DNA of 54,501 nt from an uncultured Bacilli bacterium (GTDB taxonomy: Bacteria; Bacillota_I; Bacilli_A; RF39; UBA660), in contig CALVUY010000002.1 in NCBI GenBank assembly GCA_944363705.1, forward strand, positions 1 through 54,501, read 5' to 3'. Position numbers and translations under genes: made by a program. Positions 27,600 to 45,091 of the stretch are shown one piece after another. The notes under the pieces are model-generated. The model searched no databases, was not told the DNA's origin, and worked only from the letters and a program-made list of their open reading frames with translations. The stretch's first letter is position 1, and each line of letters starts with the position of its first letter.

Positions 27600-28070
27600 T
27601 TATATTTTCAAATTTAAATTTTTAATTAATATTTTATTAGCTTCAGTTATTTTTCTTTTAACTAACTTACTATTTTGATTATTTTCCATTAAATATTTAT
27701 CATGATAATTCTTAATTTTATAAAATCTATAATTAATAAGTAAAACTAAATAAATATCATAATTAATATAGAGATTTCTTATTATTAGAGCATTCGAATA
27801 ATTAAATCCTAAATTACTATAGTCTTTCTCTTCAAATCCTTGTTCAGTTGCTATGGCAATTCTTTCTAGAGCTTTAACAGCAATGTTATTACTATTTACT
27901 AAAACAGCTAATCGTTCTCTTATTTCAGGATCTTTTAATAATGATTGGTTTTCTAAGATATTCTCTAAGTTAAAATAAACAATATCTTCTCTTATCTCAG
28001 TTCCTTCCATTTCCAAGTTAAAAAGAGTATCTACTAAATTGTTATATATAGTTGTTTCTTTTACATTCAT
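27600..28070 (-). CDS. Hypothetical protein (156 aa)
   Basis: ORF located between rnc and rnj. No motif recognised. Confidence 0.5.
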   Translation of the reverse strand: MNVKETTIYNNLVDTLFNLEMEGTEIREDIVYFNLENILENQSLLKDPEIRERLAVLVNSNNIAVKALERIAIATEQGFEEKDYSNLGFNYSNALIIRNLYINYDIYLVLLINYRFYKIKNYHDKYLMENNQNSKLVKRKITEANKILIKNLNLKI

Positions 28071-28072
28071 AA

Positions 28073-28738
28073 TTATATAGCAAGTTTTTCTAAAGCATTT
28101 TTAGCAGCTAGTTGCTCTGCTTCCTTCTTACTGTTTCCTACTCCTTCTCCATAAATAATACCATCTACTCTTACTTGCATTTTAAAGGTTTTATCATGAG
28201 GAGGACCTGATTCAGAAATTAATTCATAATAAAGACTCTTTTTAGTAGTTTGAACTGCTTCTTGTAAAGCTGATTTATAATCTGAGAAGAATGTTACATT
28301 AGGATTAGTAACATAAGGAACAATTATATCTAAAATAACTCTTCTAACAGTAGCATATCCTAAATCTAGGTAAATAGCACCCATTAAAGACTCAAAGATA
28401 TCGGCAACTATAGCTTTTTTAAGTTTACCTCCATGTAATTCTTCTCCATGGCCTACTTTTATATATTTATTAAGTCCTAAACCTAAAGAATACTCATATA
28501 AAGCATTCTCACATACATAACTTGCTCTTACTTTAGTCATAGTACCTTCATTTTCATCATGATTACGATATAAGTAATCAGCCATGACTAAATCAACAAC
28601 AGCATCTCCTAAAAACTCTAACCTTTCATAATCTTTTTTCGCTCTATGTTCATTAGCATAAGATGAGTGAGAGAAAGCTACTTCATATAGTTTTATATTT
28701 TTAGGAGTTATATTTAATTTTTTAAATAATTCATCCAT
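28073..28738 (-). CDS. rnc: Ribonuclease III
   Basis: ERLEFLGDAV signature, plus a C-terminal dsRBD (GPPHDKTF...GEGVGNSKKEAEQLAAKNAL). Confidence 0.95.
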   Translation of the reverse strand: MDELFKKLNITPKNIKLYEVAFSHSSYANEHRAKKDYERLEFLGDAVVDLVMADYLYRNHDENEGTMTKVRASYVCENALYEYSLGLGLNKYIKVGHGEELHGGKLKKAIVADIFESLMGAIYLDLGYATVRRVILDIIVPYVTNPNVTFFSDYKSALQEAVQTTKKSLYYELISESGPPHDKTFKMQVRVDGIIYGEGVGNSKKEAEQLAAKNALEKLAI

Positions 28739-29090
28739 TAATTATCACTTCTTTCCATATATCTTCTTTAAAACCAGTTAAAACAAAATTATCACTCACA
28801 AGAAGAGGTCTTTTTACAAGCATACCATCAGTAGATAATAACTCAAGCTTTTCATCCAAAGTCATATTAGGTAACTTATCTTTTAAATGTAACTCTTTAT
28901 ATAAATTACCACTTGTATTAAAGAGTGTTTTTATATCTTTACCACTAATTTCAAGAAATTTCTTTAGTTCCTCTTTAGTAGGATTATTAGTTACTATATT
29001 TCTATCAACATATTTAATATTATTATCATCTAAAAACTTTTTAGCTTTCCTGCAAGTACTACATTTTGGATATTCTATAAACAAATACAT
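28731..29090 (-). CDS. ArsC/Spx-family thioredoxin-fold protein
   Basis: MYLFIEYPKCSTCRKAKKFLDDNNIKY..DR.. pattern with a CxxC motif. Start taken at the ATG at 29090, after AAAGAGGGA. Confidence 0.75.
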   Translation of the reverse strand: MYLFIEYPKCSTCRKAKKFLDDNNIKYVDRNIVTNNPTKEELKKFLEISGKDIKTLFNTSGNLYKELHLKDKLPNMTLDEKLELLSTDGMLVKRPLLVSDNFVLTGFKEDIWKEVIING

Positions 29091-29131
29091 AATAGTCCCT
29101 CTTTCCATAATTATTATACTAGACTTTAAGG

Positions 29132-29160
29132 CAAAAGAAAAGTAAGTTATAATACTTACT
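29132..29160 (-). terminator. Terminator closing the toxin-island operon
   Basis: Stem agtaagt (29141-29147) / acttact (29154-29160). On the minus strand it is followed by TTTCTTTTG. It lies 7 nt after the stop of the kinase-like gene. Confidence 0.6.
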
Positions 29161-29166
29161 CATCAT

Positions 29167-29898
29167 TTAATTATTATTTTTCCATAATATTAAGTCATTT
29201 TTTGCTTCAATAACATTATTATATCTAGAATTAATCATTTTATAAAAAATAATTTCAAGATTATCACTTATATCATCTATAACATCACTTATTAATAAAT
29301 TATCACTTTTTTTCTCATTTATTAATTCATTTAAATTATTATAATTAAATGCTTTTTTATTTGTAATTATCTCATATAATATAATTCCTAAAGCATATAT
29401 GTCAAAATTATATGTAACTTTTTCTTTTCTTAATTGTTCAATAGAACAATAAGATACACTACCATAATCAGTTTTACCACCTATAAATTGAGCTGTACCA
29501 TAATCTATAATATATATGTCCTTATTATTAGAAATTAAAATATTACTAGGCTTCAAATCACAATGAACAATAAAACGATTATGTAACATTTCTACTTTTT
29601 CTATTATTTTAATAAAAACATCTATTTTTTCATTTAAGTTATCAAATTTATAATTATTTAATGTAACACCATCTATATATTCATAAATTATATAATAAGG
29701 ATTTTTATTATTAAAAAATAATACTTTAGGAACAAACGACAATTCCTTTATCTTTTGCCATATATATAGTTCGTTATCTAGCATTTTTAGTAAATCTTCA
29801 TCATAGTTTATTAACTCTTTTTTTAATACTAATTTATTCTCATAAGAAAAAGATGTATATACATATTTATTAGCTTCTGTTTCTTTTTTATCTAGCAT
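29167..29898 (-). CDS. Minimal Ser/Thr protein-kinase-like protein (243 aa)
   Basis: Catalytic loop HCDLKPSNILIS, DYG in place of DFG, and SIEQL in the APE position. Candidate beta3 Lys (LVLKKE) and alphaC Glu (DNELYIW). No TM or extra domains. Overlaps the upstream gene by 11 nt. Confidence 0.65.
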   Translation of the reverse strand: MLDKKETEANKYVYTSFSYENKLVLKKELINYDEDLLKMLDNELYIWQKIKELSFVPKVLFFNNKNPYYIIYEYIDGVTLNNYKFDNLNEKIDVFIKIIEKVEMLHNRFIVHCDLKPSNILISNNKDIYIIDYGTAQFIGGKTDYGSVSYCSIEQLRKEKVTYNFDIYALGIILYEIITNKKAFNYNNLNELINEKKSDNLLISDVIDDISDNLEIIFYKMINSRYNNVIEAKNDLILWKNNN

Positions 29899-30199
29899 TT
29901 TGTTTATGTTTATATACCTTTTCTAGAATATCTTTTTGATTAAAAAGAGTTAAATCATCTTCATCTCTACTAATATTTTTAGTAGCATAATCTACTATTC
30001 CTATACCAGGTATTTCATAATCAATATATATAACTTCATAACTAGAATCATCGCCTTTTAATTTAACAATATCTCCAACTTCTAATTTTTCTTCAAAAGA
30101 TGAATTTTTTTGTAAAGACTTAATATATTGCTCATTATTTTCAACTATATTACCATTTTTATCTTTAAATATTAAATCATCAAAACTAAAATTATCCAT
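29888..30199 (-). CDS. 103-aa acidic protein, candidate immunity protein for toxin 1
   Basis: The ATG at 30199 lies inside the last toxin codons (..AAT AAT GGA TAA), an 8-nt overlap, and GGAGG lies upstream. No known motif. Confidence 0.5.
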   Translation of the reverse strand: MDNFSFDDLIFKDKNGNIVENNEQYIKSLQKNSSFEEKLEVGDIVKLKGDDSSYEVIYIDYEIPGIGIVDYATKNISRDEDDLTLFNQKDILEKVYKHKQNAR

Positions 30200-33100
30200 T
30201 ATTACCTCCATTTTCTATAATATTTCTTATAATATTATAAACATTTCTCGTATTATATTTATTATAGAAGTTAATTAAATGATCAGAAATACCAAGTTTC
30301 TTTAATTCTACAATGTTATCTAATTGTTCTTTAGTATATTTCTGTTCAAGCATATTATCTTTTATTTCTTTATTTCCACGTATTTCTTGAATTTGATAAG
30401 ATGATTTGATTAATTCAGTAGCAAGTTCATTTCGTAAATATTTTTCATTCAAGTTACCTGGGAATCTAACTCTATCTAAGGCATCAGCATCTTTTAAAAT
30501 AGTAGCAATTCTATATACCTCGTTAGCATCATTATTACTAATATTATACTTACTAAATATTCTATTAATATCAGCATTAGTATCACCTGTTTCATGATAC
30601 TCTATAACCGCTGCTATTTTATTTAATTCTTCTTCACTATAATTATTCTCTAACTCTTTAAGAGCTTTAACAGCACTAAGTTCAGCATGATTAGTATCAG
30701 TTTGAAGATTCACTCTACCTGAGTCATGGAATTTAGCAGCTTCTATTAGTATATTCATTTGATCAATATTTAATCCTAGTTCTTCTCCCATATACATTGA
30801 ATAAAATAACACTCTTTCAACATGATCTATATTATGTTCAGGAATATTGATATCATAAAGATCATTACTTTTTAAATATCTAACTTCACTTTCAAATCTT
30901 CCTAATAACCCTTTTTCTTTAAACGTATTCATAATATCATAAAGATCTATTTGATTTTGTGCTAGAGGGCTAGACTTAGAAACAAAATTATTATAATAGC
31001 TTAGTGATTGATTTTTACTATTAATTTTATCTAAATTAAGACTTGATACAATAGACTCTTCCTGAGGAATTAATCTAGCTCTTATTTTTATTTGTCCAGT
31101 ATTTTGATCTATCTTAGGATAGGATATAATTTCAAATTCATTATTACGTCCTAATAATAATTCTTGTTGATTATAGTTTTTAATACCTGCAAACTTTTCT
31201 AAATAGGCTGCTTTAGTTCCTTTAGGAACTTCTATTTCTAAGGATATATGTCTTGTACTAGAAATTTTTTTAGGTATAAGCGAAGTACTCATAAAAGCTT
31301 GATCATTAAATTTTTGACCAATATTAAAAGTATTAATTCTATTACCATCTAAATATAAAGCATCTACACCACGGTATACTAAAATATCATCTTTTAAAGG
31401 TTCTGATTTTTCAATAATATTATCCATAGCTTGGACATATTCATCAACATTAGTATATTTAAATAGTTCGTTAAATTTACCAGTAAAATTTATAGATTTA
31501 GTTAGATATTCATTAATTGATGACTTCTTTTTACCATTAAAAAATCTACCTTTAAAATTAGTAATTGTATGTCTCAAATATGCTGTAACTGCTGGACCAG
31601 CTGCTAAAGTATATGTTTGAATCAAGTCTTTTTCAGTTTCAGTATAACTGTTTCCAATTTTATCAAGGATTTGTAACTTTTTATAAGTCTTTTTATCTTT
31701 TCTAGGTAAATATTTAAGATAATCTTTATAGTCAATATCTCTAATAGATTCATTGGACATTTTATCATATGCTTTTTTTACTTCTTGATTATTGGTAGTA
31801 TTTGCAATTATTTCTAATTGATTTAGAAGAAATTGATTAGCATCATTAAAATAATTGGCAATATCATATTTATCTTGAAAAACTTTAACAGAAGCATCAA
31901 TTGACTGTTCAATTGATGAAGTTAATTTAGCAGTTATACTACTACCATCATCAATATTAGTTAATTTCTCTGTTATCTCACTTCCTTCATCTATATCATG
32001 TAATTTTTCAGTTATTTCAACACCATCATTAGAACTATCCCTTATAGAATCAATACCAGCATTAGTTGCTTCTGCAACACTATTTACCACTTCATCGATA
32101 GTTTCTCTTGTATTAGTATTTCCTGAACTATTTATTTTATTAACATCACTAACTACACCATCTTTATCTACACTAAAGAAAGAATCAATATATTCAGGCT
32201 TAATACAATAAACGTTTTTTTCTTCATTAAAATAAACTAAATCTTCTATCTGTGATCCTTTAGGAATCTTTAAAAAAATCGCTCCATCTACAATATTACT
32301 TCCTTGAGATATTCCATTAGCATTTTTAACATCTCTAATTGCATCTATAATACTATCCATTCTAGTAATAGTTGCATCTATATTAATTTCATCAATACTT
32401 GTTGGAGCTCCTCCTCCACTAGCAGTATGGTTATTACAGTATAGACCTATTTCGCTTATAGATGCTATATCAGAACTTGGTATTGTTTTAATATAAACAT
32501 CATAATTAGGGTCTTCAAATAAATTACTAATATACTCTCCTGTTTCTTCACTTATAAATCCTTTATTATTAATATTTTCTATCATACTATCTAGTTGTTC
32601 TTTAGTGAAAAATCCTGATTCTAATCTACTTTTATAAAATCCTGTTATGTCATTTTCATTTAATTGATAGCCATGAATTTCATCAATTTCTCTTGATATT
32701 GGAACTTGTTCTTTTCCTACAGAAATTCCTTTAATTATTTTGGAAATAGCACTTATACCTGGTATATTTATTCCCTTTATTGATTTAGATACTTTATCTG
32801 CTACTCTATTATTTATATTTTCTTGAAGAATAGAAGTATTTATACTTGATATAGAATCAACTACATCATTTGTCGTTTCTATTACATCTTGATTTTCTGA
32901 TATATTAGTATCACTAATACTTTCAACATTACTTAATTTGTTAACAGTTAAAGAAGGTCCATTCATTGTTCCACTTATTATCATACCATAAATAGTACTT
33001 TTTAGAGCATCTAGATTCAATTGATCTCCATCCAATTGTTCTCCTAAAACTGTACCTCTTAAATAAGCATCTATATATTCTTGAGTACCTTCTTCTCCAC

Positions 33101-34694
33101 CTTCTTTTAATATTGATGTTGCTAATTCTTTAAATGATGTTACATTAACATCATTTAATCCTGGTATAGAACCAATCCATTTTTGCAATGTCGCTTCAGA
33201 AAGACCAGATAATGTTCCATAAAAAACAGCATCTCTTGTACTTACACCATTAACTAAAGCTTGATGATAACTATTTCCACCTGCTGATGTTCCCATTAAA
33301 AATGTACCTGCTGTTGGTGTTGTTAACATTCCTAAAGCCATACTCGGTAACATATTACCAACACTCATACTTATCTCATAATTATTATCTAGAAAGTTTG
33401 CAAAATCTTTATCATCACTTAATGCTTCTAATATATATAAACTCTCATATTCTTCAACACTATATACATCACTAGATTGATGCCATGCGGCAAGTCCTAA
33501 AAAGAAATTCTGGGCTCCATCCCCTATTCCTTTACCTGAAACTTTAAAATGATTCATTATATCCGTATAATCATAATTACCATTTTCATCTTTTTTTAGT
33601 CCTTCTAAAAACTTCTCCGCTTTCTTTTGTCCTGCTAATTGATTTATTTGATCTTCTATATCTTCAAGATATTTATTCGCTGAATCTATCCCTTCTTTTT
33701 CATATAAATAATTATATGTTTTTATTAAATCACTATCTTCATCTGCTACTGATATTAATGTCTTTAATAACCCTTCATTATCCATCGCTGTAGCCGTTGT
33801 ATCAGGATAATTTTCTTGTACCCACATACAAAATTCTAATGGGCTTATATTGTCTCCTGTCTTAGTACAATACTCACTATATGATACCTGAGTACCCATC
33901 TGCATTCGCATTTCATCTATTATGCTTTTATCTATTTGAAACTCATAATTAAAGTTTTGGTAATCTTCTTCTTTAACGAGAAACTCATATTTTGCCATCT
34001 TCTTTAATTGTTCTATTTTATATATAGATGTATTTAAAGTAGTTTGTTGGACCTCTAATTCTTCTATTCTTGCTAAATACTCATCATATGTAGAAAACTC
34101 TGTATTCTCGCTTATCGCTTTATCTAAATTTTCTTTTCTATATTCCTCAATAGATGCAAGTTTCTCTTTTACTTCATCATCTTTTTCTTTAAGCACTTCA
34201 AAAAGTTCAGCATAAGTCATACTAGTTACATCTGCTTGATTTAAGCCTAACTTTTCTAACTCTTCTTCTGGACAAGATATTTTATACCCTTCTATTAACT
34301 GATATATTTCACTAGTTATAGTATTCTCATAGTCTTTACACATATTTTCTATAACAGTTAGATTTGTTCCTGATTCTGCAAAGGCATCTTCTTTTAATAT
34401 TCCAAGTTCATTTTCTGTATCTTCTAACATAGTCTGATATAACTCTAATTCTTTTTCTAAACTAGCTTGATATGTCTTTAAATCTGTATTTTCTATATTA
34501 TAACCTTTATCTATATTAGTAAGATCTATTTGCGTATTAGATGTATTTGTTTGTTCTATCTTAGTTTCATTATTAATATTTCCTATATCTACATCTTCCA
34601 CAGGCTCACTACTACTTTTAGATAAGTTGCCATTTGTAATACTTTTTTTAAACTCAGATAATACATTAGGTATATCTATTTTTATCTTATCCAT
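30192..34694 (-). CDS. Giant polymorphic toxin 1: shared 857-aa N-terminal region + R-S-QxE ADP-ribosyltransferase domain + HD domain
   Basis: 1500 aa. ART motifs: YTLAAGPAVTAYLR, LVYRGV (Arg1108, codon 31371-31373), FMSTS (1136-1138) and NQQELLL (1176-1178). HD motifs: DHVERV, KFHDSGR, EYHETGD and KDADALDRVR (about 30462-30845). Confidence 0.8.
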   Translation of the reverse strand: MDKIKIDIPNVLSEFKKSITNGNLSKSSSEPVEDVDIGNINNETKIEQTNTSNTQIDLTNIDKGYNIENTDLKTYQASLEKELELYQTMLEDTENELGILKEDAFAESGTNLTVIENMCKDYENTITSEIYQLIEGYKISCPEEELEKLGLNQADVTSMTYAELFEVLKEKDDEVKEKLASIEEYRKENLDKAISENTEFSTYDEYLARIEELEVQQTTLNTSIYKIEQLKKMAKYEFLVKEEDYQNFNYEFQIDKSIIDEMRMQMGTQVSYSEYCTKTGDNISPLEFCMWVQENYPDTTATAMDNEGLLKTLISVADEDSDLIKTYNYLYEKEGIDSANKYLEDIEDQINQLAGQKKAEKFLEGLKKDENGNYDYTDIMNHFKVSGKGIGDGAQNFFLGLAAWHQSSDVYSVEEYESLYILEALSDDKDFANFLDNNYEISMSVGNMLPSMALGMLTTPTAGTFLMGTSAGGNSYHQALVNGVSTRDAVFYGTLSGLSEATLQKWIGSIPGLNDVNVTSFKELATSILKEGGEEGTQEYIDAYLRGTVLGEQLDGDQLNLDALKSTIYGMIISGTMNGPSLTVNKLSNVESISDTNISENQDVIETTNDVVDSISSINTSILQENINNRVADKVSKSIKGINIPGISAISKIIKGISVGKEQVPISREIDEIHGYQLNENDITGFYKSRLESGFFTKEQLDSMIENINNKGFISEETGEYISNLFEDPNYDVYIKTIPSSDIASISEIGLYCNNHTASGGGAPTSIDEINIDATITRMDSIIDAIRDVKNANGISQGSNIVDGAIFLKIPKGSQIEDLVYFNEEKNVYCIKPEYIDSFFSVDKDGVVSDVNKINSSGNTNTRETIDEVVNSVAEATNAGIDSIRDSSNDGVEITEKLHDIDEGSEITEKLTNIDDGSSITAKLTSSIEQSIDASVKVFQDKYDIANYFNDANQFLLNQLEIIANTTNNQEVKKAYDKMSNESIRDIDYKDYLKYLPRKDKKTYKKLQILDKIGNSYTETEKDLIQTYTLAAGPAVTAYLRHTITNFKGRFFNGKKKSSINEYLTKSINFTGKFNELFKYTNVDEYVQAMDNIIEKSEPLKDDILVYRGVDALYLDGNRINTFNIGQKFNDQAFMSTSLIPKKISSTRHISLEIEVPKGTKAAYLEKFAGIKNYNQQELLLGRNNEFEIISYPKIDQNTGQIKIRARLIPQEESIVSSLNLDKINSKNQSLSYYNNFVSKSSPLAQNQIDLYDIMNTFKEKGLLGRFESEVRYLKSNDLYDINIPEHNIDHVERVLFYSMYMGEELGLNIDQMNILIEAAKFHDSGRVNLQTDTNHAELSAVKALKELENNYSEEELNKIAAVIEYHETGDTNADINRIFSKYNISNNDANEVYRIATILKDADALDRVRFPGNLNEKYLRNELATELIKSSYQIQEIRGNKEIKDNMLEQKYTKEQLDNIVELKKLGISDHLINFYNKYNTRNVYNIIRNIIENGGNNG
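31914..32027 (-). repeat. Three tandem 36-nt (12-aa) repeats in the toxin 1 linker
   Basis: DGVEITEKLHDI / DEGSEITEKLTNI / DDGSSITAKLTSS. Confidence 0.7.
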
Positions 34695-34699
34695 AGCAA
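32125..34699. repeat. 2575-bp direct repeat, copy A (5' part of toxin 1)
   Basis: Matches 41158-43732 at an offset of 9033 bp. The first mismatches are at 32124/41157 and 34700/43733. The translations are identical over 857 aa and the antisense ORFs are identical (33287-33475 and 42320-42508). Confidence 0.9.
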
Positions 34700-34713
34700 G
34701 CCTCCTCTTTTAT

Positions 34714-34956
34714 TTACATTCTATTACTAACATTAGGCATTATACTATTTACTAACTCATTTTCTAATGAATCAACAGTACTTTTTATATTGTTAAAACT
34801 ACCATCTACTACTGTTTTCTCATCTACTACTAAATTTTCCTTAACACTTACTTTTAAGTCATCAAAAGCTTTATCTAATTCTTGATATTTATTTTTAATA
34901 TGATAAAGCTTACTTAATAACTGTTTATATTTTTCTTTAATTAATTCATCCTCCAT
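34714..34956 (-). CDS. 80-aa alpha-helical protein (toxin-partner candidate)
   Basis: The ATG at 34956 follows GAGGTG. The sequence is coiled-coil-like (MEDELIKEKYKQLLSKLYHIKNKYQELDKAFDDLK...). Position immediately upstream of the toxin matches LXG-associated helical proteins. Confidence 0.55.
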   Translation of the reverse strand: MEDELIKEKYKQLLSKLYHIKNKYQELDKAFDDLKVSVKENLVVDEKTVVDGSFNNIKSTVDSLENELVNSIMPNVSNRM

Positions 34957-34969
34957 AATTAGCACCTCA

Positions 34970-35266
34970 CTAACCGATATCATCAAACATCTTAGATATT
35001 TTCTCACTAGTTGCAATATAAGTTTCCATATTCTTTTTTAAAACTAATATATTATTATCATGAATAGAAACAATAGTCTTAAATTTATTTTTAAAGTTTA
35101 AAGCCAAATTATTTAACTTATCAGAATTATCTGTTTTATAATTAAGGTTTAACGATTCAATAGCTGCATTAATATCTTCAATATTTAATTGTTCATCTTT
35201 TGTCTCTACTTCTAAATTTTTAATAGTTTTAGATATTTCCTCAGTACTAAGAAAATTACCATTCAT
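34970..35266 (-). CDS. 98-aa alpha-helical protein (toxin-partner candidate)
   Basis: The ATG at 35266 follows AGGTGA. Helical composition. Ends ..ISKMFDDIG. Confidence 0.55.
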   Translation of the reverse strand: MNGNFLSTEEISKTIKNLEVETKDEQLNIEDINAAIESLNLNYKTDNSDKLNNLALNFKNKFKTIVSIHDNNILVLKKNMETYIATSEKISKMFDDIG

Positions 35267-35275
35267 CTTTATCAC

Positions 35276-35839
35276 CTACATAAATTCATTAATATCTGCT
35301 TCTTTTATTATCTCAATATTTATCTTGGATAACCTTAAATTAACATCTTTTTCTATTTGTTCTATCTTCTCAAAAATATTTTTTACTTTTTCTTTATCTG
35401 TCACTATTTTTTCTTTTATTTTTATTAACTCTTGTTTTTGTTTTGCTAGTTTATTTGCAATAGTTACTGTACAAAAACTCAAATCTAAGTCATTATATAA
35501 GGAAACTAACTCATTAATCTTCTCCCTAAAATCATTAAACTTAGTGATTACCTTATTTTTTTCTTCCAAATTAACTCTAATTTTATTACCAATACTTTTA
35601 TATTGTTCTATTAAAAAAGTATAAATATCATTTAAAGATTTAAGTTCATTATATGTATTATTAAGTTTAATTTTTTCTGAATTTACATTCGTAAAGAAAA
35701 GTCTTGCATGAAAATCATTCCAATAACCGCTAGCCCAATTGAGCTCATTATAAATATTTAAAATATTTTCATAAAAAGATTCTATACTTTTCGTTAATAA
35801 ATCATATTCTTTTTCAAGTGCTAATACATTAATTTCCAT
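35276..35839 (-). CDS. 187-aa helical protein with W-x-x-G-like turn (NWASGYW)
   Basis: The internal ATG at 35839, preceded by AGGTGA, was chosen. The longer ORF-track version (to 36028) would overlap the Esx-like gene. Long coiled-coil C-terminus. Confidence 0.55.
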   Translation of the reverse strand: MEINVLALEKEYDLLTKSIESFYENILNIYNELNWASGYWNDFHARLFFTNVNSEKIKLNNTYNELKSLNDIYTFLIEQYKSIGNKIRVNLEEKNKVITKFNDFREKINELVSLYNDLDLSFCTVTIANKLAKQKQELIKIKEKIVTDKEKVKNIFEKIEQIEKDVNLRLSKINIEIIKEADINEFM

Positions 35840-35930
35840 AGTATCACCTAACCATTTTCCAAATATATAAAAACTACAAAATGTAGTTTCCATATATTTA
35901 GAAAATAAATTTCTAAATAGCTTATCAAAT

Positions 35931-36584
35931 TTATCCTTGAAGTGTGAATGCCTCAGATATTTTTCCTTCAGTATCACCATAAGCTTCAATTGTGCTTTGA
36001 ATAGCAGTTTTAGTTTCTGTTGTAACATTGGTTACAACCTCATCAATTTTAGTTTTAATTTGTCCAAGTGATTCAACTAAGTTTGCTTGTTGTGAACCAC
36101 CAATAAATCCAGAATTTTGAACAGCACTCTGAGCATTAGATAATGCTGATTCTGCATCTGATGCCAATCCAGGTAATTTATTAGCTACATTTTCAGCGTT
36201 TGCTTTATCTATCCCTCTAACACCTCCAATGTTTTCTAAAATTACACCTGCATCGATTGTTTTAGCAGTTGGTGTAAAAGATACTGGAGAATAGCTTGAC
36301 TCAGTACGAGCAGCCCATGCTTGTCCTGCACTGTTCATAGATGCAACAACGCTTTCAAAAGTACTATTAGAGCTTGTTATAATACTATCAATCGCTGGTT
36401 TAAAAGAATTAGTAAAGAATTTTTGTGCTTGTGTACAAGCCCATTTATCTTGCATTCCTCCTACAAAATCACTTTGCATCTTGTCTCCTAAAACTCCTAT
36501 TAATTCCTCATAGGCAGATATAACTTTTCCTATAGATTGACTTACAATTTCTGGATCAAATCCTGTAATACTTGATGTTGCCAT
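35931..36584 (-). CDS. Double-length WXG100/Esx-like protein (217 aa)
   Basis: The N-terminal half has Esx-like layout: ..DPEIVSQSIGKVISAYEELIGVL....DKWACTQAQKFF, i.e. W-A-C in place of W-x-G, followed by A..F. The second helical half has GFIGGSQQANL. The C-terminus ends EAFTLQG, reminiscent as I recall it of the F-G-L-Q end of S. aureus EsxA. First gene behind a strong promoter. Confidence 0.55.
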   Translation of the reverse strand: MATSSITGFDPEIVSQSIGKVISAYEELIGVLGDKMQSDFVGGMQDKWACTQAQKFFTNSFKPAIDSIITSSNSTFESVVASMNSAGQAWAARTESSYSPVSFTPTAKTIDAGVILENIGGVRGIDKANAENVANKLPGLASDAESALSNAQSAVQNSGFIGGSQQANLVESLGQIKTKIDEVVTNVTTETKTAIQSTIEAYGDTEGKISEAFTLQG

Positions 36585-36694: not shown

Positions 36695-38343
36695 GTAACT
36701 ATTCAGACTATGAAAAAAATAAAATGTAAAAAGTAGTGTCAACGATGCTGCTTTTTTCAATTATATATGAGAAAATAATAATAGTTAAGGATAGTGGTAT
36801 AAATGATGAAAGTTACAAATGATTTCTATAGGCAATTTGAAGAATTAAATAATAAGTTAGATTCATTATTAAAAGAAAATAAAGATTTAAAGAAAGAATT
36901 TAAACAAGAAAAAGAAGAATTAAAAACCACTATAACTAGTTTAGAAAAAAGCATAAAAGAAAAAGATGAACTTATAGAAAAATTATTAAATGAAATAGAT
37001 AGACTAAAAAATCAAATAAATAAAAATAGTAGTAATTCTAGTAAACCACCCTCAACAGATACAGGAAAGAAAGAAAAAAGTGGAGCCAATTTATATAATT
37101 CTAGAAAAAAGACAGACAAGAAAATAGGAGGACAAAAAGGTCATGAAGGACATAGTCTTACTAAAGATAAAGTTGAAAAGATGATAAAAGATAAACTTGT
37201 AGAAACTAGAACTATTTATCATGAGAGTAATAATAGGAATGGTAAAGATGTTACTAAGTATAGAATAGGCTTAGAAGTAAATGTTTATGTAGAAGAACAT
37301 ATCTTTAAACATAATCCAAATACAGAAGAAAAAATACCAAAAGAGTTTTATACAGATGTAACTTATGATAATAGTATAAAAGCTTTAACAATTGAACTTG
37401 GAACATACAATGTAGTGGCATTAGATAGATTAAGTGATTTATTTAATGTTCTTTCTAAAGGAGTAATAGATATATCTAATGGTACATTAGTTAACTTTCT
37501 AAAAGAGTTTAGTCTAAAGTCAAAACCAACTTTAGACAATCTAGAAAATGATTTATTAAATAAAGCTTTAATGCATACAGACGAAACAACTAACGATAAT
37601 AAATGGTATATAAGGAATTACAGTAATAGTGAAACAGTAGTTTATAAGCCTCATAAAAATAAAGGGCATAAACAAATAGAGGAGCATGATATTTTAACAA
37701 GATATACTGGGGGTATTATGCATGATCATGATACTGCAATGTATAAATATGGTTCTAATAACTATGAATGTAATGTTCATTTGGGAAGATATTTAGAAGA
37801 GATAATTCAAAATGTCTCCGAAGTTACTTGGCCGAAAGATTTAAAAGAATTAATATTTAAAGCATATCATGATAGAAAAGTTTTAATAAAAAAAGGTTGC
37901 AAATCATTTTCTAATATAAAAACTAATGAGATTAGTGCAAAATATGATGAGATTATATCATTAGCCAAGAAAGAAAGTAAAAATATTAAATCTACATATT
38001 ATAAAGAAAAAGCACTTAAACTTATTAGAAGATGTGAAAAATATAAAGATAATCATTTGGCTTTTATATATGATTTTAGTGTTCCTTTTGATAATAATCC
38101 AAGTGAAAGAGATTTAAGGATTATTAAAATTAAAACTAAAATATCTGGAGGATTTAAAAATATAAATAGTGCTGAAGCATATTGTAATGCAATTAGTATT
38201 ATAAAAACATCTCTTAAAAGAAAGATTAATCCTTTTGAATCTATTAAAGATATATTTAACAATAAAGTATTATTTGCAAACTAAAAAGAGCAATTTTTGT
38301 ATAATTACTCTTTACTTTTGCGTGTCATAGTCTGAATAGTTAC
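36695..38343 (+). mobile_element. IS66-family insertion sequence (single-ORF type), 1649 bp
   Basis: Perfect 19-bp terminal inverted repeats GTAACTATTCAGACTATGA (36695-36713 and 38325-38343), starting with GTAA as in IS66. 8-bp target-site duplication CAACTTAT (36687-36694 and 38344-38351). An uninterrupted copy of the target site is at 44303-44310. Confidence 0.9.
36803..38284 (+). CDS. IS66-family transposase
   Basis: 493 aa. N-terminal coiled coil, GGQKGHEGHSL block, CNVHLGRYLEE (C.aH.rR-like) and the C-terminal NNPSERDLRIIKIKTKISGGF block typical of IS66 TnpC. Confidence 0.85.
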   Translation: MMKVTNDFYRQFEELNNKLDSLLKENKDLKKEFKQEKEELKTTITSLEKSIKEKDELIEKLLNEIDRLKNQINKNSSNSSKPPSTDTGKKEKSGANLYNSRKKTDKKIGGQKGHEGHSLTKDKVEKMIKDKLVETRTIYHESNNRNGKDVTKYRIGLEVNVYVEEHIFKHNPNTEEKIPKEFYTDVTYDNSIKALTIELGTYNVVALDRLSDLFNVLSKGVIDISNGTLVNFLKEFSLKSKPTLDNLENDLLNKALMHTDETTNDNKWYIRNYSNSETVVYKPHKNKGHKQIEEHDILTRYTGGIMHDHDTAMYKYGSNNYECNVHLGRYLEEIIQNVSEVTWPKDLKELIFKAYHDRKVLIKKGCKSFSNIKTNEISAKYDEIISLAKKESKNIKSTYYKEKALKLIRRCEKYKDNHLAFIYDFSVPFDNNPSERDLRIIKIKTKISGGFKNINSAEAYCNAISIIKTSLKRKINPFESIKDIFNNKVLFAN

Positions 38344-38372: not shown

Positions 38373-41300
38373 CTAATTGTTATTTAAAATATTTGACTTA
38401 TCAATTTCTTCTAATGTTTTATTTAGATTATTTATATCTTTATTTAACCTTTCAATATTTTCTAATGTATTTTTTTCGTATTCAGTTATATCTTTTTGAT
38501 AGTAATAATCCATTACACTTGTACTATCTGGAACATAATCAAACTGTGTAATACTTTTAAATTCTGTTTCTATAGATTTAATCTTTGTAGTTAAGCTATC
38601 TATCTCAGCTGCAATATTTTGATTGTCTTTTTTTAATGACTCTACTTTATTTATAGATTCTTGTAAATCCTGCTTATACTGTTTTATTCTTTTCCTATAA
38701 ATAAGTCTTTTAATAAAATTACTAGAAGTTTCTTTAATTAACATATTCATAGTTTCTTGGTGATTTTTTTCACTAGTAATTTGACTGTTATTTTCTTCTA
38801 ACTTAAAAATATATTCATTTCTCATTTTGTATTTTTCTTTTCTATTATCAATTAATTCATTAAGATGATTTTTGGAAGCGATTATATTTTTAGCTAGCTT
38901 TATCTCTTCTAAAGAATTATTATATTTTTTTAGTTCATCTTGTTTTTCTAATAAGTCATTTCTAATTTCATTTTGAGAAAATTGTGTAATTACTTTAATA
39001 ATATCTTCATAGGAATGTGCACCTTCAAGTAATTTATTAAGAGTTTGACTATCTTTATCATCTATATTTTCACATAAGTTTAACAATAATTCAAAATTTG
39101 GTAGCTTCTCAATTAAGTTATTATTTTCATATAAATTAATAATATTTAACTGACTTATTAAATCAGAAAATGTTTTTACGTTTTTAAAACTGGATTTTAT
39201 AATATTATAAGTTTTTTCTTCAATATTTTCCAAAGTAACATTTTCTATTTTTTCATCTGGCACGTCTAATCTAATCAACAAATTATGCAAATATTCTATA
39301 TTTAAATAATTAGGAAACAATTCTAAAAAAACATTTTTATAATAACTATCATAATAATAATTAGAACAACACCTAAGTAAAGAAATAAAATCATAAACAC
39401 TATGAACATTATTAATATTTAAATTAGATAATATATTATTTTTTATTTCTTCATCAGGTAACGTATCACCTATAATTTTTTCTGTTTCACTACTTGGTGT
39501 TATATTATGAGTAACTTCAGACTTAATTTTATCTTTTAGCATTTTTATATCTTCTTTACTTGTTATATCATATTTGCTTTCTTTACCGAGCGAATCGTAT
39601 AAATCTATTTTAATTTTTCTAGTGTTTTCTTCATTGTCATTAAACTTTTCTACAATATTTAATTCATTTATTATAAATTCAGCTTGACTATAACTTAATT
39701 TTCCATCATCTGGCATATAGATAACTAATTCAACACCAGTTGAAGCCATCATAGCATTTCTCGGCCTTACATCAAAATATCTACTTTGATTATCATTATA
39801 TATTTCCGCTTCTATATTACCTGCTATTTCATTATGAGTAGCAAAGTCATTTCTAAGAACTTGACTATAAAATACAGACTGTCTATCGGTTATTACCCAT
39901 ACCCCTCTTATCCTTTTATTATTTTCATTACAATAATCAAAATAATCTTCAGCTTTTAGTTCTAAACTCTTTTCATTTATTTTTTTCAAATCACTAGATT
40001 TTCTTCTACCTACCAGTAATCTATCATAGTTTTTTTCTGATATATAACCTTTCATTAATAAATATCTCTTCATATCAGCAGTATTTAAACCATCAAATTT
40101 TTTAAATAATATAAAAGTAGACGTAGCTAATGCATTTTTATCTCCTGTCTTAATATAATCTTCTAAATATTTTATAGCGTTTTCTTTACCACATCTTTCA
40201 CTAATATCATTAAACAAATTATCTAAATTTCTATAAGTACGTGGATTCATTAATATAAAGCTACCACTTTCTTCATTCTCTTTATTGCTAGAAGCTTCTT
40301 TAATATTATTATCAATATTTTCATGTTGTTCATTAGAACTTGTATTATTAAAAATAGAATAGACTCTTTCTTTAATACCCATAGGATTTATTGCTTTCTC
40401 AAATTGACTGACTAGCCCACTTATTTTAGAATTTCCAAAAAAACGTCCTAACTCTTTAGATAATTCAGTATATGCACCATCATAAACGTACCTATCAAAA
40501 ATACTTCTTATAGTATCAGGGTCATTATTCAAATAACTATCTAATAAAATATCATTTTCACCATACAGTTCATAAAGTGCATTATCTATTCTCTCCCACA
40601 ATCTTATTCCTACATCATCATAATTATAATAATAAATTTTTTGATCATAATATTTTGATGCTAAATAATCAGTTAAACATTCATTTGAAAGGATATTATT
40701 AGTGCCATCTGAATAAAGTTCAATTATTCCTGAAGCCTGTATTTCTGTTCCTTTAGAAGTTTTAATTTTTTTATTTTTAACTTCTGAAAACTTATGAAAT
40801 AATTCATGTATAACATTATGCATACTTGAATTTGAAGGAAAATATACATTATGATTTTTATCTACAAAGCCAAGAACACTACTACTATGGCCCCTTTTTT
40901 TAACAAAACTTTCCCATTCATTAGCATCTATAATGTTAACGTCATCAACAATACTGTCAATATATGATTTTTTAAATTTTCCCTTTAAAGCTTTATAAAA
41001 AACATTCTTAACTTTTTTTGCATCCCATATATCAGCATCATCTGCTTCAGTAGCAGAAGCCATTAAAGCCCTTATATCAGATTCAAGTAATTCATCAGTA
41101 ATTGAAGTAGTACTTTGTGCAATACTTTTAGCTACATTATCAACATTTTCATTATAAGAACTATTTATTTTATTAACATCACTAACTACACCATCTTTAT
41201 CTACACTAAAGAAAGAATCAATATATTCAGGCTTAATACAATAAACGTTTTTTTCTTCATTAAAATAAACTAAATCTTCTATCTGTGATCCTTTAGGAAT

Positions 41301-43727: not shown

Positions 43728-43732
43728 AGCAA
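41158..43732. repeat. 2575-bp direct repeat, copy B (5' part of toxin 2)
   Basis: See 32125-34699. Confidence 0.9.
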
Positions 43733-44830: not shown

Positions 44831-45091
44831 CTATCTTGATATCAAAATGAGTTCACTACTATTTCTAATATCAGTTTCTAAAATTATTTCATTATTATTA
44901 TAAATTTTACTATTATCTTTATTTATTAATACACAGTCAAGATCATTAAAAGTATTAATATTATTAAGATCACTAACTGACTTCAAAATTAATTTTTTTA
45001 TTTTCCATACTAATTCATTGACTGGTATAAAAACATCAAAAGTAGAATCTAATTCTGGAACTATTAACTTAATTAAAACTTTATTTTTCAT
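44831..45091 (-). CDS. esaB: YukD/EsaB-like small ubiquitin-fold T7SS protein
   Basis: 86 aa counted from the ATG at 45091, which overlaps the essC stop by 11 nt. Size, position and beta-grasp-like pattern (KVLIKLIVPELDSTFDVFIP...ELILISR) fit YukD/EsaB. Confidence 0.6.
   Translation of the reverse strand: MKNKVLIKLIVPELDSTFDVFIPVNELVWKIKKLILKSVSDLNNINTFNDLDCVLINKDNSKIYNNNEIILETDIRNSSELILISR

Follow-up and report, generated by a model that had tools for sequence, protein, structure and literature searches.

Why would a secreted bacterial toxin carry two different enzyme domains at its C-terminus? This question is raised by toxin 1 of the window (the whole stretch of 54,501 nucleotides that was analysed). 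A sequence-only reading of this toxin had assigned to it a C3-like ADP-ribosyltransferase (ART) followed by an HD phosphohydrolase domain, and had offered two roles for the latter: processing of the ADP-ribosyl mark left by the ART, or independent toxicity. Database searches, structure modelling and comparison with related loci confirmed that the C-terminus of toxin 1 joins a C3-type ART to an HD phosphohydrolase domain (Table 1).

Toxin 1 and its secretion locus

The stretch matching the delivery region of toxin 1 is the N-terminus of toxin 2; the two genes share 2570 nt (857 aa) and diverge beyond. The remainder of toxin 1 had been called its variable part, which is accurate, since the identity between the two toxins stops exactly at 32124. 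The alternative C-termini on this identical N-terminus are 7 kb apart, with an EssC gene in the same locus. A conserved N-terminus, an exchangeable C-terminus and a cognate downstream gene were all found, and the classification of toxin 1 as a polymorphic toxin was thereby borne out.

Pfam analysis of the delivery region returned no match, and the LXG domain (PF04740) was detected neither in toxin 1 nor in seven homologues. The N-termini of the toxins are helical and resemble LXG proteins by eye only. Syntenic EssC genes were identified in related loci (L004, L008 and L135-L139). The four small helical ORFs upstream of toxin 1 gave no Pfam match; the corresponding place in L136 and L138 does give Pfam matches to WXG100, and the toxins in L135-L138 are flanked by WXG100 pairs, DUF4176 and EssC. 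Judged by this gene content, with EssC in the window, WXG100 proteins in related loci and no LXG match, toxin 1 is best explained as a type VIIb secretion polymorphic toxin. Region 28001..36000 had no DNA similarity match among phage records, and its sole match among plasmid records was an ArsC gene.

Table 1. Features of the toxin 1 locus (positions in the window)
Feature	Position	Strand	Remarks
Ser/Thr kinase-like ORF, 243 aa	29167..29898	-	Pkinase E 2.6e-27; HCDLKPSN and DYG motifs
107-aa ORF, DUF4176-like, candidate cognate immunity	29888..30211	-	Overlaps toxin 1 stop codon
Toxin 1	30192..34694	-	1500-aa ORF; EssC-like ATPase in same locus
HD domain, aa 1250-1495, 'LKDADALDRxRF' subfamily	30210..30947	-	PF01966; model pLDDT 93.5
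H1323-D1324, HD dyad	30723..30728	-	In 38/39 homologues
ART-HD linker, aa 1213-1249	30948..31058	-	Low pLDDT at model positions 221-240
C3-like ADP-ribosyltransferase, aa 1010-1212	31059..31667	-	PF03496, PDB sequence matches, Foldseek
Q1176-Q1177-E1178, QxE motif of ARTT loop	31161..31169	-	Q in 36/39, E in 39/39 homologues
S1136-T1137-S1138, STS motif	31281..31289	-	S1136 in 37/39 homologues
LVYRGV, aa 1105-1110, NAD-binding R1108	31371..31373 (R1108 codon)	-	Arg in 38/39 homologues
Toxin 1 delivery region, aa 1-857	32125..34694	-	Nucleotide match 100% to 41158..43727
Four small helical ORFs (100, 101, 250, 217 aa)	34714..36584	-	Upstream of toxin 1; candidate WXG/Lap-like export partners
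Toxin 2	38373..43727	-	1784 aa; first 857 aa of toxin 1, other C-terminus with HELFH motif
EssC-like FtsK/SpoIIIE ATPase, type VII motor	45081..49640	-	PF01580 E 6.4e-40, two stretches

The ADP-ribosyltransferase domain

The ART was visible to Pfam only on a sub-sequence (aa 961-1240), where PF03496 (ADPrib_exo_Tox) matched with an E-value of 1.9e-23 and 83.3 bits against a cut-off of 23.4; a scan of the whole protein missed it. Sequence searches of the PDB returned C3stau2 (1.3e-9), Plx2A, C3larvin, Vip2 and C3bot, and the QQE of the toxin was aligned to that of C3stau2. When an AlphaFold model of the ART and HD domains together (pLDDT 85.5, pTM 0.79) was compared with the PDB using Foldseek, 111 matches were obtained at E≤1e-3. 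The best 50 were almost all ART toxins, the foremost folds being C3bot1 (E 2e-7, target-normalised TM ~0.6), Plx2A, C3lim, C3cer and Certhrax, and the C3-like assignment was upheld by fold as well as by sequence. The pTM also suggests that the two domains hold a defined relative arrangement, the modelled interface being based on few sequences that span both.

The elements of a complete R-S-QxE enzyme previously read from the sequence were all recovered, namely the helix motif YTLAAGPAVTAYLR (aa 1028-1041), LVYRGV, FMSTS (aa 1134-1138) and NQQE (aa 1175-1178), and the Arg, Ser, Gln and Glu residues are conserved among homologues (Table 1). R, STS and QxE also stand in the order expected of this enzyme clade. 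Q-Q-E is a signature of this toxin ART family, being present in 36 of its 39 members. The sequence-only reading had further associated QxE with modification of Asn; this specificity is not transferable to toxin 1, because bacteria are not known to have a Rho target and guanine-specific ARTs, pierisin and ScARP among them, likewise carry QxE.

The HD domain

A full HD domain had likewise been proposed, and all of its metal ligands are in place within DHVERV (aa 1290-1295), KFHDSGR (aa 1321-1327), EYHETGD (aa 1365-1371) and KDADALDRVR (aa 1401-1410) and their surroundings. PF01966 scored above its cut-off of 22 both in the whole protein (E 3.5e-6, 27.7 bits) and on the HD sub-sequence (E 9.4e-8, 32.8 bits). 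Invariant residues comprise H1287, H1291, H1323-D1324, H1336, H1367, D1402, D1404 and D1407. The model of this domain (pLDDT 93.5) is an all-helical HD fold whose best PDB matches are all HD or PDEase structures (2pq7, a predicted HD hydrolase and the best match, with PDE5, Ppx/GppA and CCA enzymes), at a Foldseek probability of ~1.0 but an E-value of only 9e-3. HD-GYP protein 4mcw was the best PDB profile match (E 2e-7 over 74 residues). From these features, the HD domain is predicted to be an active phosphohydrolase that depends on metal.

Of 37 complete fusions of ART and HD, 36 preserve both the metal ligands and the LKDADALDRxR motif, at identities down to ~35%, which points to selection on HD catalysis. 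P0206 is a fusion in which the HD fold is retained and the ART is intact with all metal ligands lost; HD catalysis is therefore not always needed.

The subfamily to which this domain belongs gave at least 1968 matches at 1e-5 and has no characterised member. Most of these proteins are free-standing (~200 aa) or fused to non-ART domains, so the subfamily has substrates independent of ART, plausibly nucleotides. Weak resemblance to Pfam HD-CE was seen in 35 of 75 members. The subfamily is frequent in gut bacteria and in large phage contigs. A 'TRHTHNE' domain, which had no PDB sequence match, accompanies HD in 26 large proteins. Phage HD proteins of ~480 aa possess an invariant YRG / SxT / ExE triad, and both a PDB profile search and hhalign comparison with the ART profile were non-significant for an ART identity, so that the triad is no more than a lead.

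Recurrence of the ART-HD fusion

The survey of ART-HD co-occurrence suggested by the earlier reading revealed a recurrent cassette. Both domains were identified in 38 fetched proteins, 34 of them representatives of 50%-identity clusters, so that the cassette occurs in at least 34 clusters, C-terminal in type VII secretion toxins. These clusters are all metagenomic, none is annotated and no protein has a name given by its source. The ART precedes the HD domain without exception, linkers are mostly 15-60 aa, and the proteins span 431-5100 aa, with the module nearly always at their C-terminus. Both catalytic sets are kept in about 36 of 39 relatives. The C-terminus of P0167 is 57% identical to that of toxin 1 and the N-termini of the two are dissimilar; the cassette is thus found on unrelated N-termini. 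Single-linkage clustering of toxin N-termini was uninformative. Some of these toxins are more elaborate: P0166 has an added HExxH segment, and those of 3396 and 5100 aa contain further domains.

The ART also occurs in 25 fetched relatives without an HD match, 20 of which are clear relatives of the toxin 1 ART subfamily. The ART-only and ART-HD forms are interleaved, with ART identities of 90% for P0270 and P0196 and 68% for P0209 and P0171. The converse arrangement, HD without ART sequence, was found in essentially no secretion-type toxin among the best 150 of 1375 matches, and P0177 retains an ART remnant; HD-only toxins are possibly under-sampled in this set, because the representative search was seeded with ART and HD together and its best 150 matches were examined. 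An ART-like region seen by eye in P0226 and P0227 was discarded, as the ART HMM was unsupportive and only the C-terminal strands align.

The same HD subfamily was encountered beside a second type of ART. In giant proteins on viral contigs, Pfam DarT (E 6.4e-13) lies ~110 aa upstream of an HD domain of this subfamily in which ILKDADALDRSR is intact. DarT-HD is an independent fusion of an unrelated ART. One free-standing ART-HD protein, P0004, has as neighbours MazG, UDG, HD_3, Ham1p, NT5C and dUTPase; no tblastn match to it was found among phage genomes and no relative by peptide-pattern scan of viral contigs. A metagenome scan with the ART profile gave three close loci, the remainder being ordinary phage or portal-fused ExE ARTs.

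The 2012 survey of polymorphic toxin domains (PMC3482391) does not list an HD toxin domain, and neither that survey nor PMC5512222 mentions one. The cassette is apparently unnamed, given that an HD toxin domain is missing from both surveys and that the proteins bear no source-given names.

Downstream genes

The 107-aa ORF family was identified downstream of ART-HD toxins in the window and in 11 of 11 related loci checked, its divergent members being recovered with HMM E-values of 2.5e-30 to 3.6e-15. It also follows the ART-only toxins P0194 (5.6e-30), P0205 (8.1e-18) and P0208 (1.8e-12), and the small ORF co-varies with the C-terminal cassette down to 33% identity. Toxin, a single small ORF and EssC adjoin one another in L136-L138, so that an HD-specific immunity gene has no space there, and none was seen downstream of ART-HD toxins in the window and related loci. 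The sole immunity candidate tracks the ART alone. In principle, one such protein might suffice to inhibit both enzymes.

With regard to DUF4176 (PF13780), the ORF of the window gave no match, its orthologues scored 17-24 bits against a cut-off of 25, and comparison of the family HMM with canonical DUF4176 gave only 5e-5 to 1e-3. Since it is only distantly related to DUF4176, the small ORF might serve in export as an adaptor and not in immunity.

The kinase-like gene was also considered as an HD-specific immunity gene and rejected: it is present in L004, L005 and L007-L010, follows an ART-only toxin in L139 and is missing from L135-L138. It is linked to lineage, not to HD.

Role of the HD domain

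The reading preferred here, with a probability of roughly 0.45, is that the ART is the primary toxin, that the HD domain acts on its ADP-ribose-bearing product and that the small ORF confers immunity. Toxin 1 would be a type VIIb-exported polymorphic toxin of a low-GC, uncultured, 'Tenericutes'-like gut bacterium with an exchangeable two-enzyme C-terminal cassette. The ART would supply the primary toxic activity, using NAD+ to ADP-ribosylate a target in the recipient cell, and the producer would be protected by the DUF4176-like protein encoded just downstream, which would neutralise the ART. The HD domain would be an optional, ART-dependent add-on, most likely acting on the installed ADP-ribose moiety, for example by cutting the pyrophosphate to leave a phosphoribosyl mark and AMP. 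A mark trimmed in this way may resist macrodomain or ARH erasers, a SidE-like logic of separate ancestry. It is more doubtful that the LKDADALDRxRF subfamily as such represents a dedicated 'ADP-ribose trimming' enzyme for C3-like QxE or DarT ARTs, leaving an eraser-proof phosphoribosyl adduct or possibly a cross-link.

Of the two roles offered by the sequence-only reading, the comparative evidence favours processing of the ADP-ribosyl mark, because the immunity candidate tracks the ART alone, because HD is optional and almost never found without ART in these toxins, and because phages join DarT, an unrelated ART, to this HD subfamily. That HD is instead a self-sufficient toxin (a nuclease, or a hydrolase of dNTP/NTP, (p)ppGpp or cyclic nucleotides) co-delivered with the ART is unlikely. 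Strict conservation of its catalytic residues would suit such an enzyme, as would the members of its family that occur alone or with other partners and hence have ART-independent substrates, the weak likeness of many of them to HD-CE and the existence of multi-warhead toxins such as P0166 and the 3396- and 5100-aa toxins. A second immunity gene is absent, however, and the conserved small ORF follows ART-only toxins too. Among the matches listed, HD is also hardly ever the only warhead that a secretion-type toxin carries, its repeated fusions are specifically to ART-superfamily domains, DarT included, and not to assorted toxin domains, and the 2012 survey lacks it.

The missing HD-specific immunity gene would equally fit a non-toxic helper acting on small molecules (free ADP-ribose, NAD-derived products or nucleotide second messengers), which would drive the ART reaction onward or dampen signalling in stress or immunity. 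Nucleotide-directed enzymes are indeed the nearest solved relatives (HD-GYP 4mcw at 2e-7, V-cGAP3, a Ppx/GppA domain and YedJ-like proteins), large phage contigs often encode members of the subfamily, and P0004 lies among nucleotide-sanitising genes. Both the helper and the effects ascribed to it have still lower odds, as the covalent joining to ART, the fixed order, the short linker and the DarT-HD fusion would be left unexplained.

A third alternative concerns the target rather than the HD domain, with the C3-like QxE enzyme modifying a eukaryotic Rho-family GTPase and the small protein serving as secretion chaperone. Rho-specific C3 exoenzymes lead both the sequence and the fold matches and share an aromatic residue just before QxE, the small ORF is distantly related to a type VII accessory family (DUF4176), and the producers are gut-associated, with related contigs from human gut metagenomes. 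Nevertheless, a host-directed effector is improbable: the cassette swaps N-termini, one locus pairs an identical 857-aa N-terminus with two alternative C-termini, and the co-variation of the small gene with the C-terminal domain is the signature of a toxin-immunity pair. Known type VIIb LXG-type toxins are, in addition, antibacterial. A non-catalytic HD domain, structural, regulatory or targeting (for example, gating the ART by nucleotide binding), would accommodate P0206 but is very improbable against the conservation of ligands and motif in nearly all complete fusions.

Significance

ADP-ribosylating toxins are normally countered by erasers, either ARH-type immunity proteins or macrodomains. 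If the preferred reading is true, built-in conversion to an unerasable mark would amount to a counter-move new to bacterial and phage conflicts, and phosphoribosyl modification would gain only its second known route, alongside that of Legionella SidE. Should the wider reading of the HD subfamily as a dedicated trimming enzyme hold, SidE-type chemistry, known so far from Legionella effectors only, would have arisen independently and be widespread in interbacterial and phage-host warfare. Regardless of the chemistry, a large toxin cassette of two enzymes, so far unnamed and present in at least 34 clusters at 50% identity, is defined, its likely immunity family is identified, and a functional lead is provided for an uncharacterised HD subfamily of at least ~2000 members in gut bacteria and large phages.

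Comparison with known systems

SidE (SdeA) of Legionella contains mART and PDE domains in one polypeptide and carries out phosphoribosyl-linked ubiquitination; the domain order of SdeA is PDE, then mART. The sequence-only reading had likened toxin 1 to these effectors. The analogy fails as a family relationship, while the proposed logic, in which an ART would write ADP-ribose and a second domain would cut its pyrophosphate, is retained as a conjecture. Membership of the HD domain in SidE_PDE was rejected: PF12252 did not match the HD domain of the window at E≤1, and no SdeA/SidE chain was present among PDB profile matches at E≤10 or the best 50 Foldseek matches. Among 75 HD family members one weak SidE_PDE match was found (0.002); P0041 scored 18.3 bits against a cut-off of 25. 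Both systems combine, in one polypeptide, an R-S-E-class mART with a metal- or His-dependent phosphodiesterase of HD-like helical fold. They differ in that the HD domain of toxin 1 is not homologous at family level, the order of ART then HD is the opposite of that in SdeA, the motif is QxE and not ExE, and toxin 1 is a ubiquitin-free type VII toxin of antibacterial type, whereas SidE is a Dot/Icm host effector.

Among solved structures, the HD domain is closest to YedJ-like and HD-GYP proteins (PDB 2pq7, 3gw7, 3dto and 4mcw), with which it shares the H..HD..H..H..D pattern. The similarity is weak (at best E 9e-3 by Foldseek and 2e-7 by profile, the latter over 74 residues), and the subfamily of toxin 1 is set apart by an invariant LKDADALDRxRF motif and by a helical extension at the C-terminus. 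DarT, the ssDNA thymidine ADP-ribosyltransferase of DarTG, offers a parallel in that phage DarT-HD proteins follow the same order as ART-HD. However, DarT belongs to a separate ART clade, targets DNA, is absent from the window and has as its known partner the macrodomain protein DarG, not HD.

By both sequence and fold, the C3 exoenzymes (C3bot, C3stau2/EDIN-B, C3lim and C3cer, with C3larvin and Plx2A of Paenibacillus larvae) are closest to the ART of toxin 1, sharing PF03496, the R / S-T-S / Q-x-E layout and the aromatic residue before QxE. C3 enzymes are free-standing exoenzymes of ~25 kDa that modify Asn41 of eukaryotic RhoA, whereas toxin 1, a type VII toxin of 1500 aa, bears its ART as a C-terminal cassette, to which an HD domain is appended and a small cognate gene downstream belongs. 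Listeria Lmo0066 ART-ARH (PDB 8ZA7), which is among the best sequence and fold matches to this ART, and Serratia Tre1-Tri1 are likewise secreted R-S-E ARTs with an adjacent immunity gene. Their immunity proteins are ADP-ribosylhydrolases that erase the mark, while the partner of toxin 1 is a DUF4176-like protein of ~105 aa without a hydrolase signature, and the HD domain of toxin 1 could, if the model is right, make such erasure impossible.

Domain architecture of toxin 1

Toxin 1 carries a C3-like QxE ADP-ribosyltransferase (ART) and a ligand-complete HD domain in one polypeptide. The sequence-only reading had proposed this fusion from eight motifs, all of which were located at the residues it assigned (the R1108 codon at 31371-31373); the fusion is correct and well past chance, as Pfam, solved-enzyme sequences and model folds agree. 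Scanned against Pfam as a whole, the protein yielded the HD as its sole domain (PF01966, E 3.5e-6, 27.7 bits, cut-off 22). The ART was overlooked in whole-protein Pfam and NCBIfam scans and recovered when the sub-sequence aa 961-1240 was scanned (PF03496, ADPrib_exo_Tox, E 1.9e-23); routine annotation may overlook domains in long, low-complexity, AT-rich proteins. Among the sequences of solved structures, aa 961-1240 matched C3stau2 (E 1.3e-9, QQE over QQE), followed in order by Plx2A, the Listeria Lmo0066 toxin, C3larvin, Vip2, C3cer and C3bot.

An AlphaFold model of aa 990-1500, the 511-aa ART-HD cassette (pLDDT 85.5, pTM 0.79), had C3bot1 as its best PDB fold match (E 2e-7), with Plx2A, C3bot2, C3lim, C3larvin, C3cer and Certhrax among the other top folds. 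The HD region modelled alone was all-helical (pLDDT 93.5). Each of its best PDB matches was an HD/PDEase fold, although a distant one (best E = 9e-3): 2pq7, which is a predicted HD hydrolase, along with PDE5, CCA enzymes and the C-terminal domain of Ppx/GppA.

Toxin locus and alternative C-termini

The window has a G+C content of ~26%, and its toxin locus is summarised in the table. The opening 2570 nt (857 codons) of toxins 1 and 2 are 100% identical and then diverge abruptly; the direct repeat that contains them has flanks unrelated to each other. The edge that the sequence-only reading had drawn at 32124 is the exact breakpoint of this identity. The two toxins pair one and the same delivery region with different C-termini, of which the ART-HD cassette is one; such an arrangement is the hallmark of polymorphic toxins. 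Toxin 1 thus shows polymorphic-toxin behaviour. The repeat may reflect a swap of C-termini in the very recent past, by recombination or gene conversion, or else an assembly effect.

Features of the toxin locus in the window
Feature	Position	Strand	Remarks
EssC-like FtsK/SpoIIIE ATPase	45081..49640		Upstream of toxin 1
Small ubiquitin-like ORF			Upstream of toxin 1
Toxin 2	38373..43727	-	Giant ORF, 1784 aa; upstream of toxin 1
Direct repeat, first copy	32125..34699		2575 nt, 100% identity; from 5 nt before the start codon to codon 857
Direct repeat, second copy	41158..43732		As first copy
IS66-family transposase	36803..38284	+	DDE_Tnp_IS66, E 8.6e-27; between the two toxin modules
Four small helical ORFs			Immediately upstream of toxin 1
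Toxin 1	30192..34694	-	1500 aa
Middle domain of toxin 1	approx. 32150..32700		aa 665-850
107-aa ORF	29888..30211	-	Downstream of toxin 1, overlapping its stop codon
Ser/Thr kinase	29167..29898	-	Minimal, 243 aa; HCDLKPSN and DYG motifs; after the 107-aa ORF
ArsC/Spx, RNase III, RNase J			Housekeeping genes; downstream, beyond the kinase

Few genes in the window lie on the plus strand; the transposase is one of them. The cassette recurs with 98% identity on contig L005, from a MAG that bears the label 'uncultured Tenericutes bacterium'; this contig ends close to the repeat boundary. The middle domain of toxin 1 is conserved in other toxins (43.6% identity to the relative P0181 over 202 aa) and falls within the region common to toxins 1 and 2. 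No Pfam domain was found in toxin 2, which has an HExxH-like motif (HELFH) at aa 974; the segment bearing it also occurs in the relative P0166, where it is joined to the ART-HD cassette.

Type VII context and the cognate small gene

Synteny with the window was seen at L004 and L007-L010, the loci of close relatives. Divergent relatives, with 36-51% identity to the toxin 1 cassette, were P0170 (locus L135), P0168 (L136), P0185 (L137) and P0176 (L138). In L136-L138 small helical ORFs precede the toxin, which is followed by one small ORF and next by an EssC with FHA and FtsK domains; two of the small helical ORFs in L136 and L138 are WXG100 proteins by Pfam. A canonical DUF4176 gene lies immediately upstream of the toxin in L136, and in L135 the small ORF is followed by a canonical DUF4176 gene, with four further genes before EssC. 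The ART-HD toxins therefore have a type VII context; as Pfam detected no LXG domain in any of the toxin N-termini scanned, they are type VII by context and not by LXG membership.

In the window and at each of the 11 other ART-HD loci examined, the ORF directly after the toxin is a member of the same, single family. An HMM of its close members matched the divergent members at 2.5e-30, 5.9e-21, 1.5e-16 and 3.6e-15, and canonical DUF4176 proteins at 5e-5 to 1e-3 only. Three ART-only toxins of the QQE subfamily are likewise followed by a member (P0194, 5.6e-30; P0205, 8.1e-18; P0208, 1.8e-12), so this single cognate small gene, the presumptive immunity gene, tracks the ART. The kinase was considered as a partner of the HD and discarded: it is a feature of this lineage, where it also accompanies an ART-only toxin (L139, E 2.7e-52), and L135-L138 lack it. 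A regulatory role for it in secretion is conceivable, because relatives have EssC proteins with FHA domains.

Distribution of the ART-HD fusion

A word-indexed search gave four ART-HD relatives (P0001 to P0004), and an exhaustive search of the cassette against 1.84 billion representatives gave 1375 matches, 62 of them at E<=1e-30. Co-occurrence of the two domains, for which the sequence-only reading had proposed a survey, is recurrent: both are present in 38 of the fetched proteins, with the ART preceding the HD in every one. The linker is usually 15-60 aa (maximum 280 aa), and the module lies nearly always at the extreme C-terminus of proteins of 431-5100 aa, the main exception being P0179, where it is internal with ~1400 aa beyond. 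The ART motif proved to be conserved among homologues (R1108 in 38/39, S1136 in 37/39, Q1176 in 36/39, Q1177 in 38/39 and E1178 in 39/39). The C-terminus of P0167 is 57% identical to the toxin 1 cassette, and its N-terminus has no similarity to that of toxin 1 at E 1e-10; the same cassette sits on unrelated N-termini. Ten fusion clusters were checked: their members are nearly all metagenomic, and none had a name in any source.

P0004 is a free-standing ART-HD protein (L001:10001-11800) with no adjoining small ORF or kinase. The genes around it form a block on one strand and are of nucleotide-sanitising and 7-deazaguanine type (MazG, two UDG, HD_3, Ham1p, NT5C, dUTPase, Q_salvage, QueC-like and radical SAM); this block may belong to a phage or other mobile element.

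An ART match without an HD match was obtained for 25 fetched relatives. Twenty of these are clear ART-only relatives of the toxin 1 ART subfamily, 16 of which end within 20 residues past the ART. ART identity between ART-only and ART-HD forms reaches 90% (P0270/P0196), 68% (P0209/P0171) and 58% (P0219/P0189). The two forms are interleaved, so the HD has been repeatedly gained or lost; it is an optional add-on to the ART. The final ART strands are retained in P0177. P0226 and P0227 were rejected as ART carriers: their alignment is confined to the C-terminal ART strands, and neither passed the ART HMM.

The HD subfamily

The HD subfamily comprises at least 1968 proteins at 1e-5. Many are free-standing, ~200 aa proteins found in Lachnospiraceae and Bacilli, with 'HD domain-containing protein' as their sole name; some have two domains and a length of ~490 aa, and many are encoded on large viral contigs. 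A further 26 large proteins (P0005, P0008, P0228-P0288) carry, 230-550 aa upstream of the HD, an additional domain with an invariant C..TRHTHNE..PSY signature and no PDB or Pfam match. The subfamily profile matched HD-GYP (4mcw, 2e-7), V-cGAP3, 2pq7, BH2835, YedJ, Ppx and a Cas10 HD; no SidE protein was found in the PDB at E<=10. Pfam SidE_PDE did not match the toxin 1 HD and matched one of 75 subfamily members, below threshold. The HD is thus outside the SidE PDE family, and the likeness to SidE effectors suggested by the sequence-only reading does not hold as a family tie.

The same HD subfamily was identified in giant phage proteins of 1842-2048 aa on IMG/VR contigs (L120-L123, L127, L130; e.g. 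L120:964-7107), ~110 residues downstream of a DarT domain (PF14487, E 6.4e-13, aa 1423-1519), with ILKDADALDRSR and all His/Asp ligands present. They represent an ART-HD fusion independent of the toxin cassette. DarT is a separate ART clade with a DNA substrate, so the ART partners of the HD have ADP-ribose chemistry, and not the target, in common. Phage HD proteins of ~460-520 aa (P0042, P0044, P0046; loci L055-L119, L124-L133) show an invariant YRG / S-x-T / E-x-E triad with ART-like spacing ~100 aa before the HD; profile tests of this region as an ART were not significant.

Proposed mechanism

We propose that the ART is the primary toxin, that the small downstream protein is its immunity protein, and that the HD, with no toxicity of its own, acts after the ART, its most plausible substrate being the ADP-ribose that the ART installs. 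We give this reading a probability of about 0.45. HD enzymes, such as SpoT, YqeK and HD-GYP, cut phosphodiester and pyrophosphate bonds, so it is chemically reasonable that ADP-ribosyl could be converted to phosphoribosyl plus AMP, which would defeat eraser-type defences; this specific trimming step is rather less probable than the proposal as a whole. The acceptor could be a protein amide or amino nitrogen, or guanine. Pierisin and ScARP modify guanine, and the rule that QxE means Asn, put forward in the sequence-only reading, is not transferable here.

That the HD is an independent second toxin is unlikely; among the 150 matches listed, secretion-type toxins with the HD virtually always retained ART sequence, and in L136-L138 EssC comes straight after the small ORF, which leaves no candidate for an immunity gene specific to the HD. 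A role for the HD as a small-molecule helper is somewhat less likely again, and it is improbable that toxin 1 is a host-directed Rho modifier. A non-catalytic HD is very improbable: both the LKDADALDRxR motif and the HD ligands are preserved in 36 of the 37 complete fusions, the exception being the free-standing, 553-aa P0206, whose ART is intact (PF03496, 4.8e-13) and whose HD is degenerate with every metal ligand substituted.

ART toxins with immunity partners are already known in type VI and VII systems. An HD toxin domain is absent from the 2012 polymorphic-toxin survey (PMC3482391), as is 'HD domain' from the 2017 polyvalent-protein survey (PMC5512222); no description of the conserved ART-HD cassette was found in either, and it may have been described elsewhere. 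Its proposed mechanism, ART action followed by HD processing, is testable and potentially important. The logic would be like that of SidE, from which the cassette differs in ancestry.
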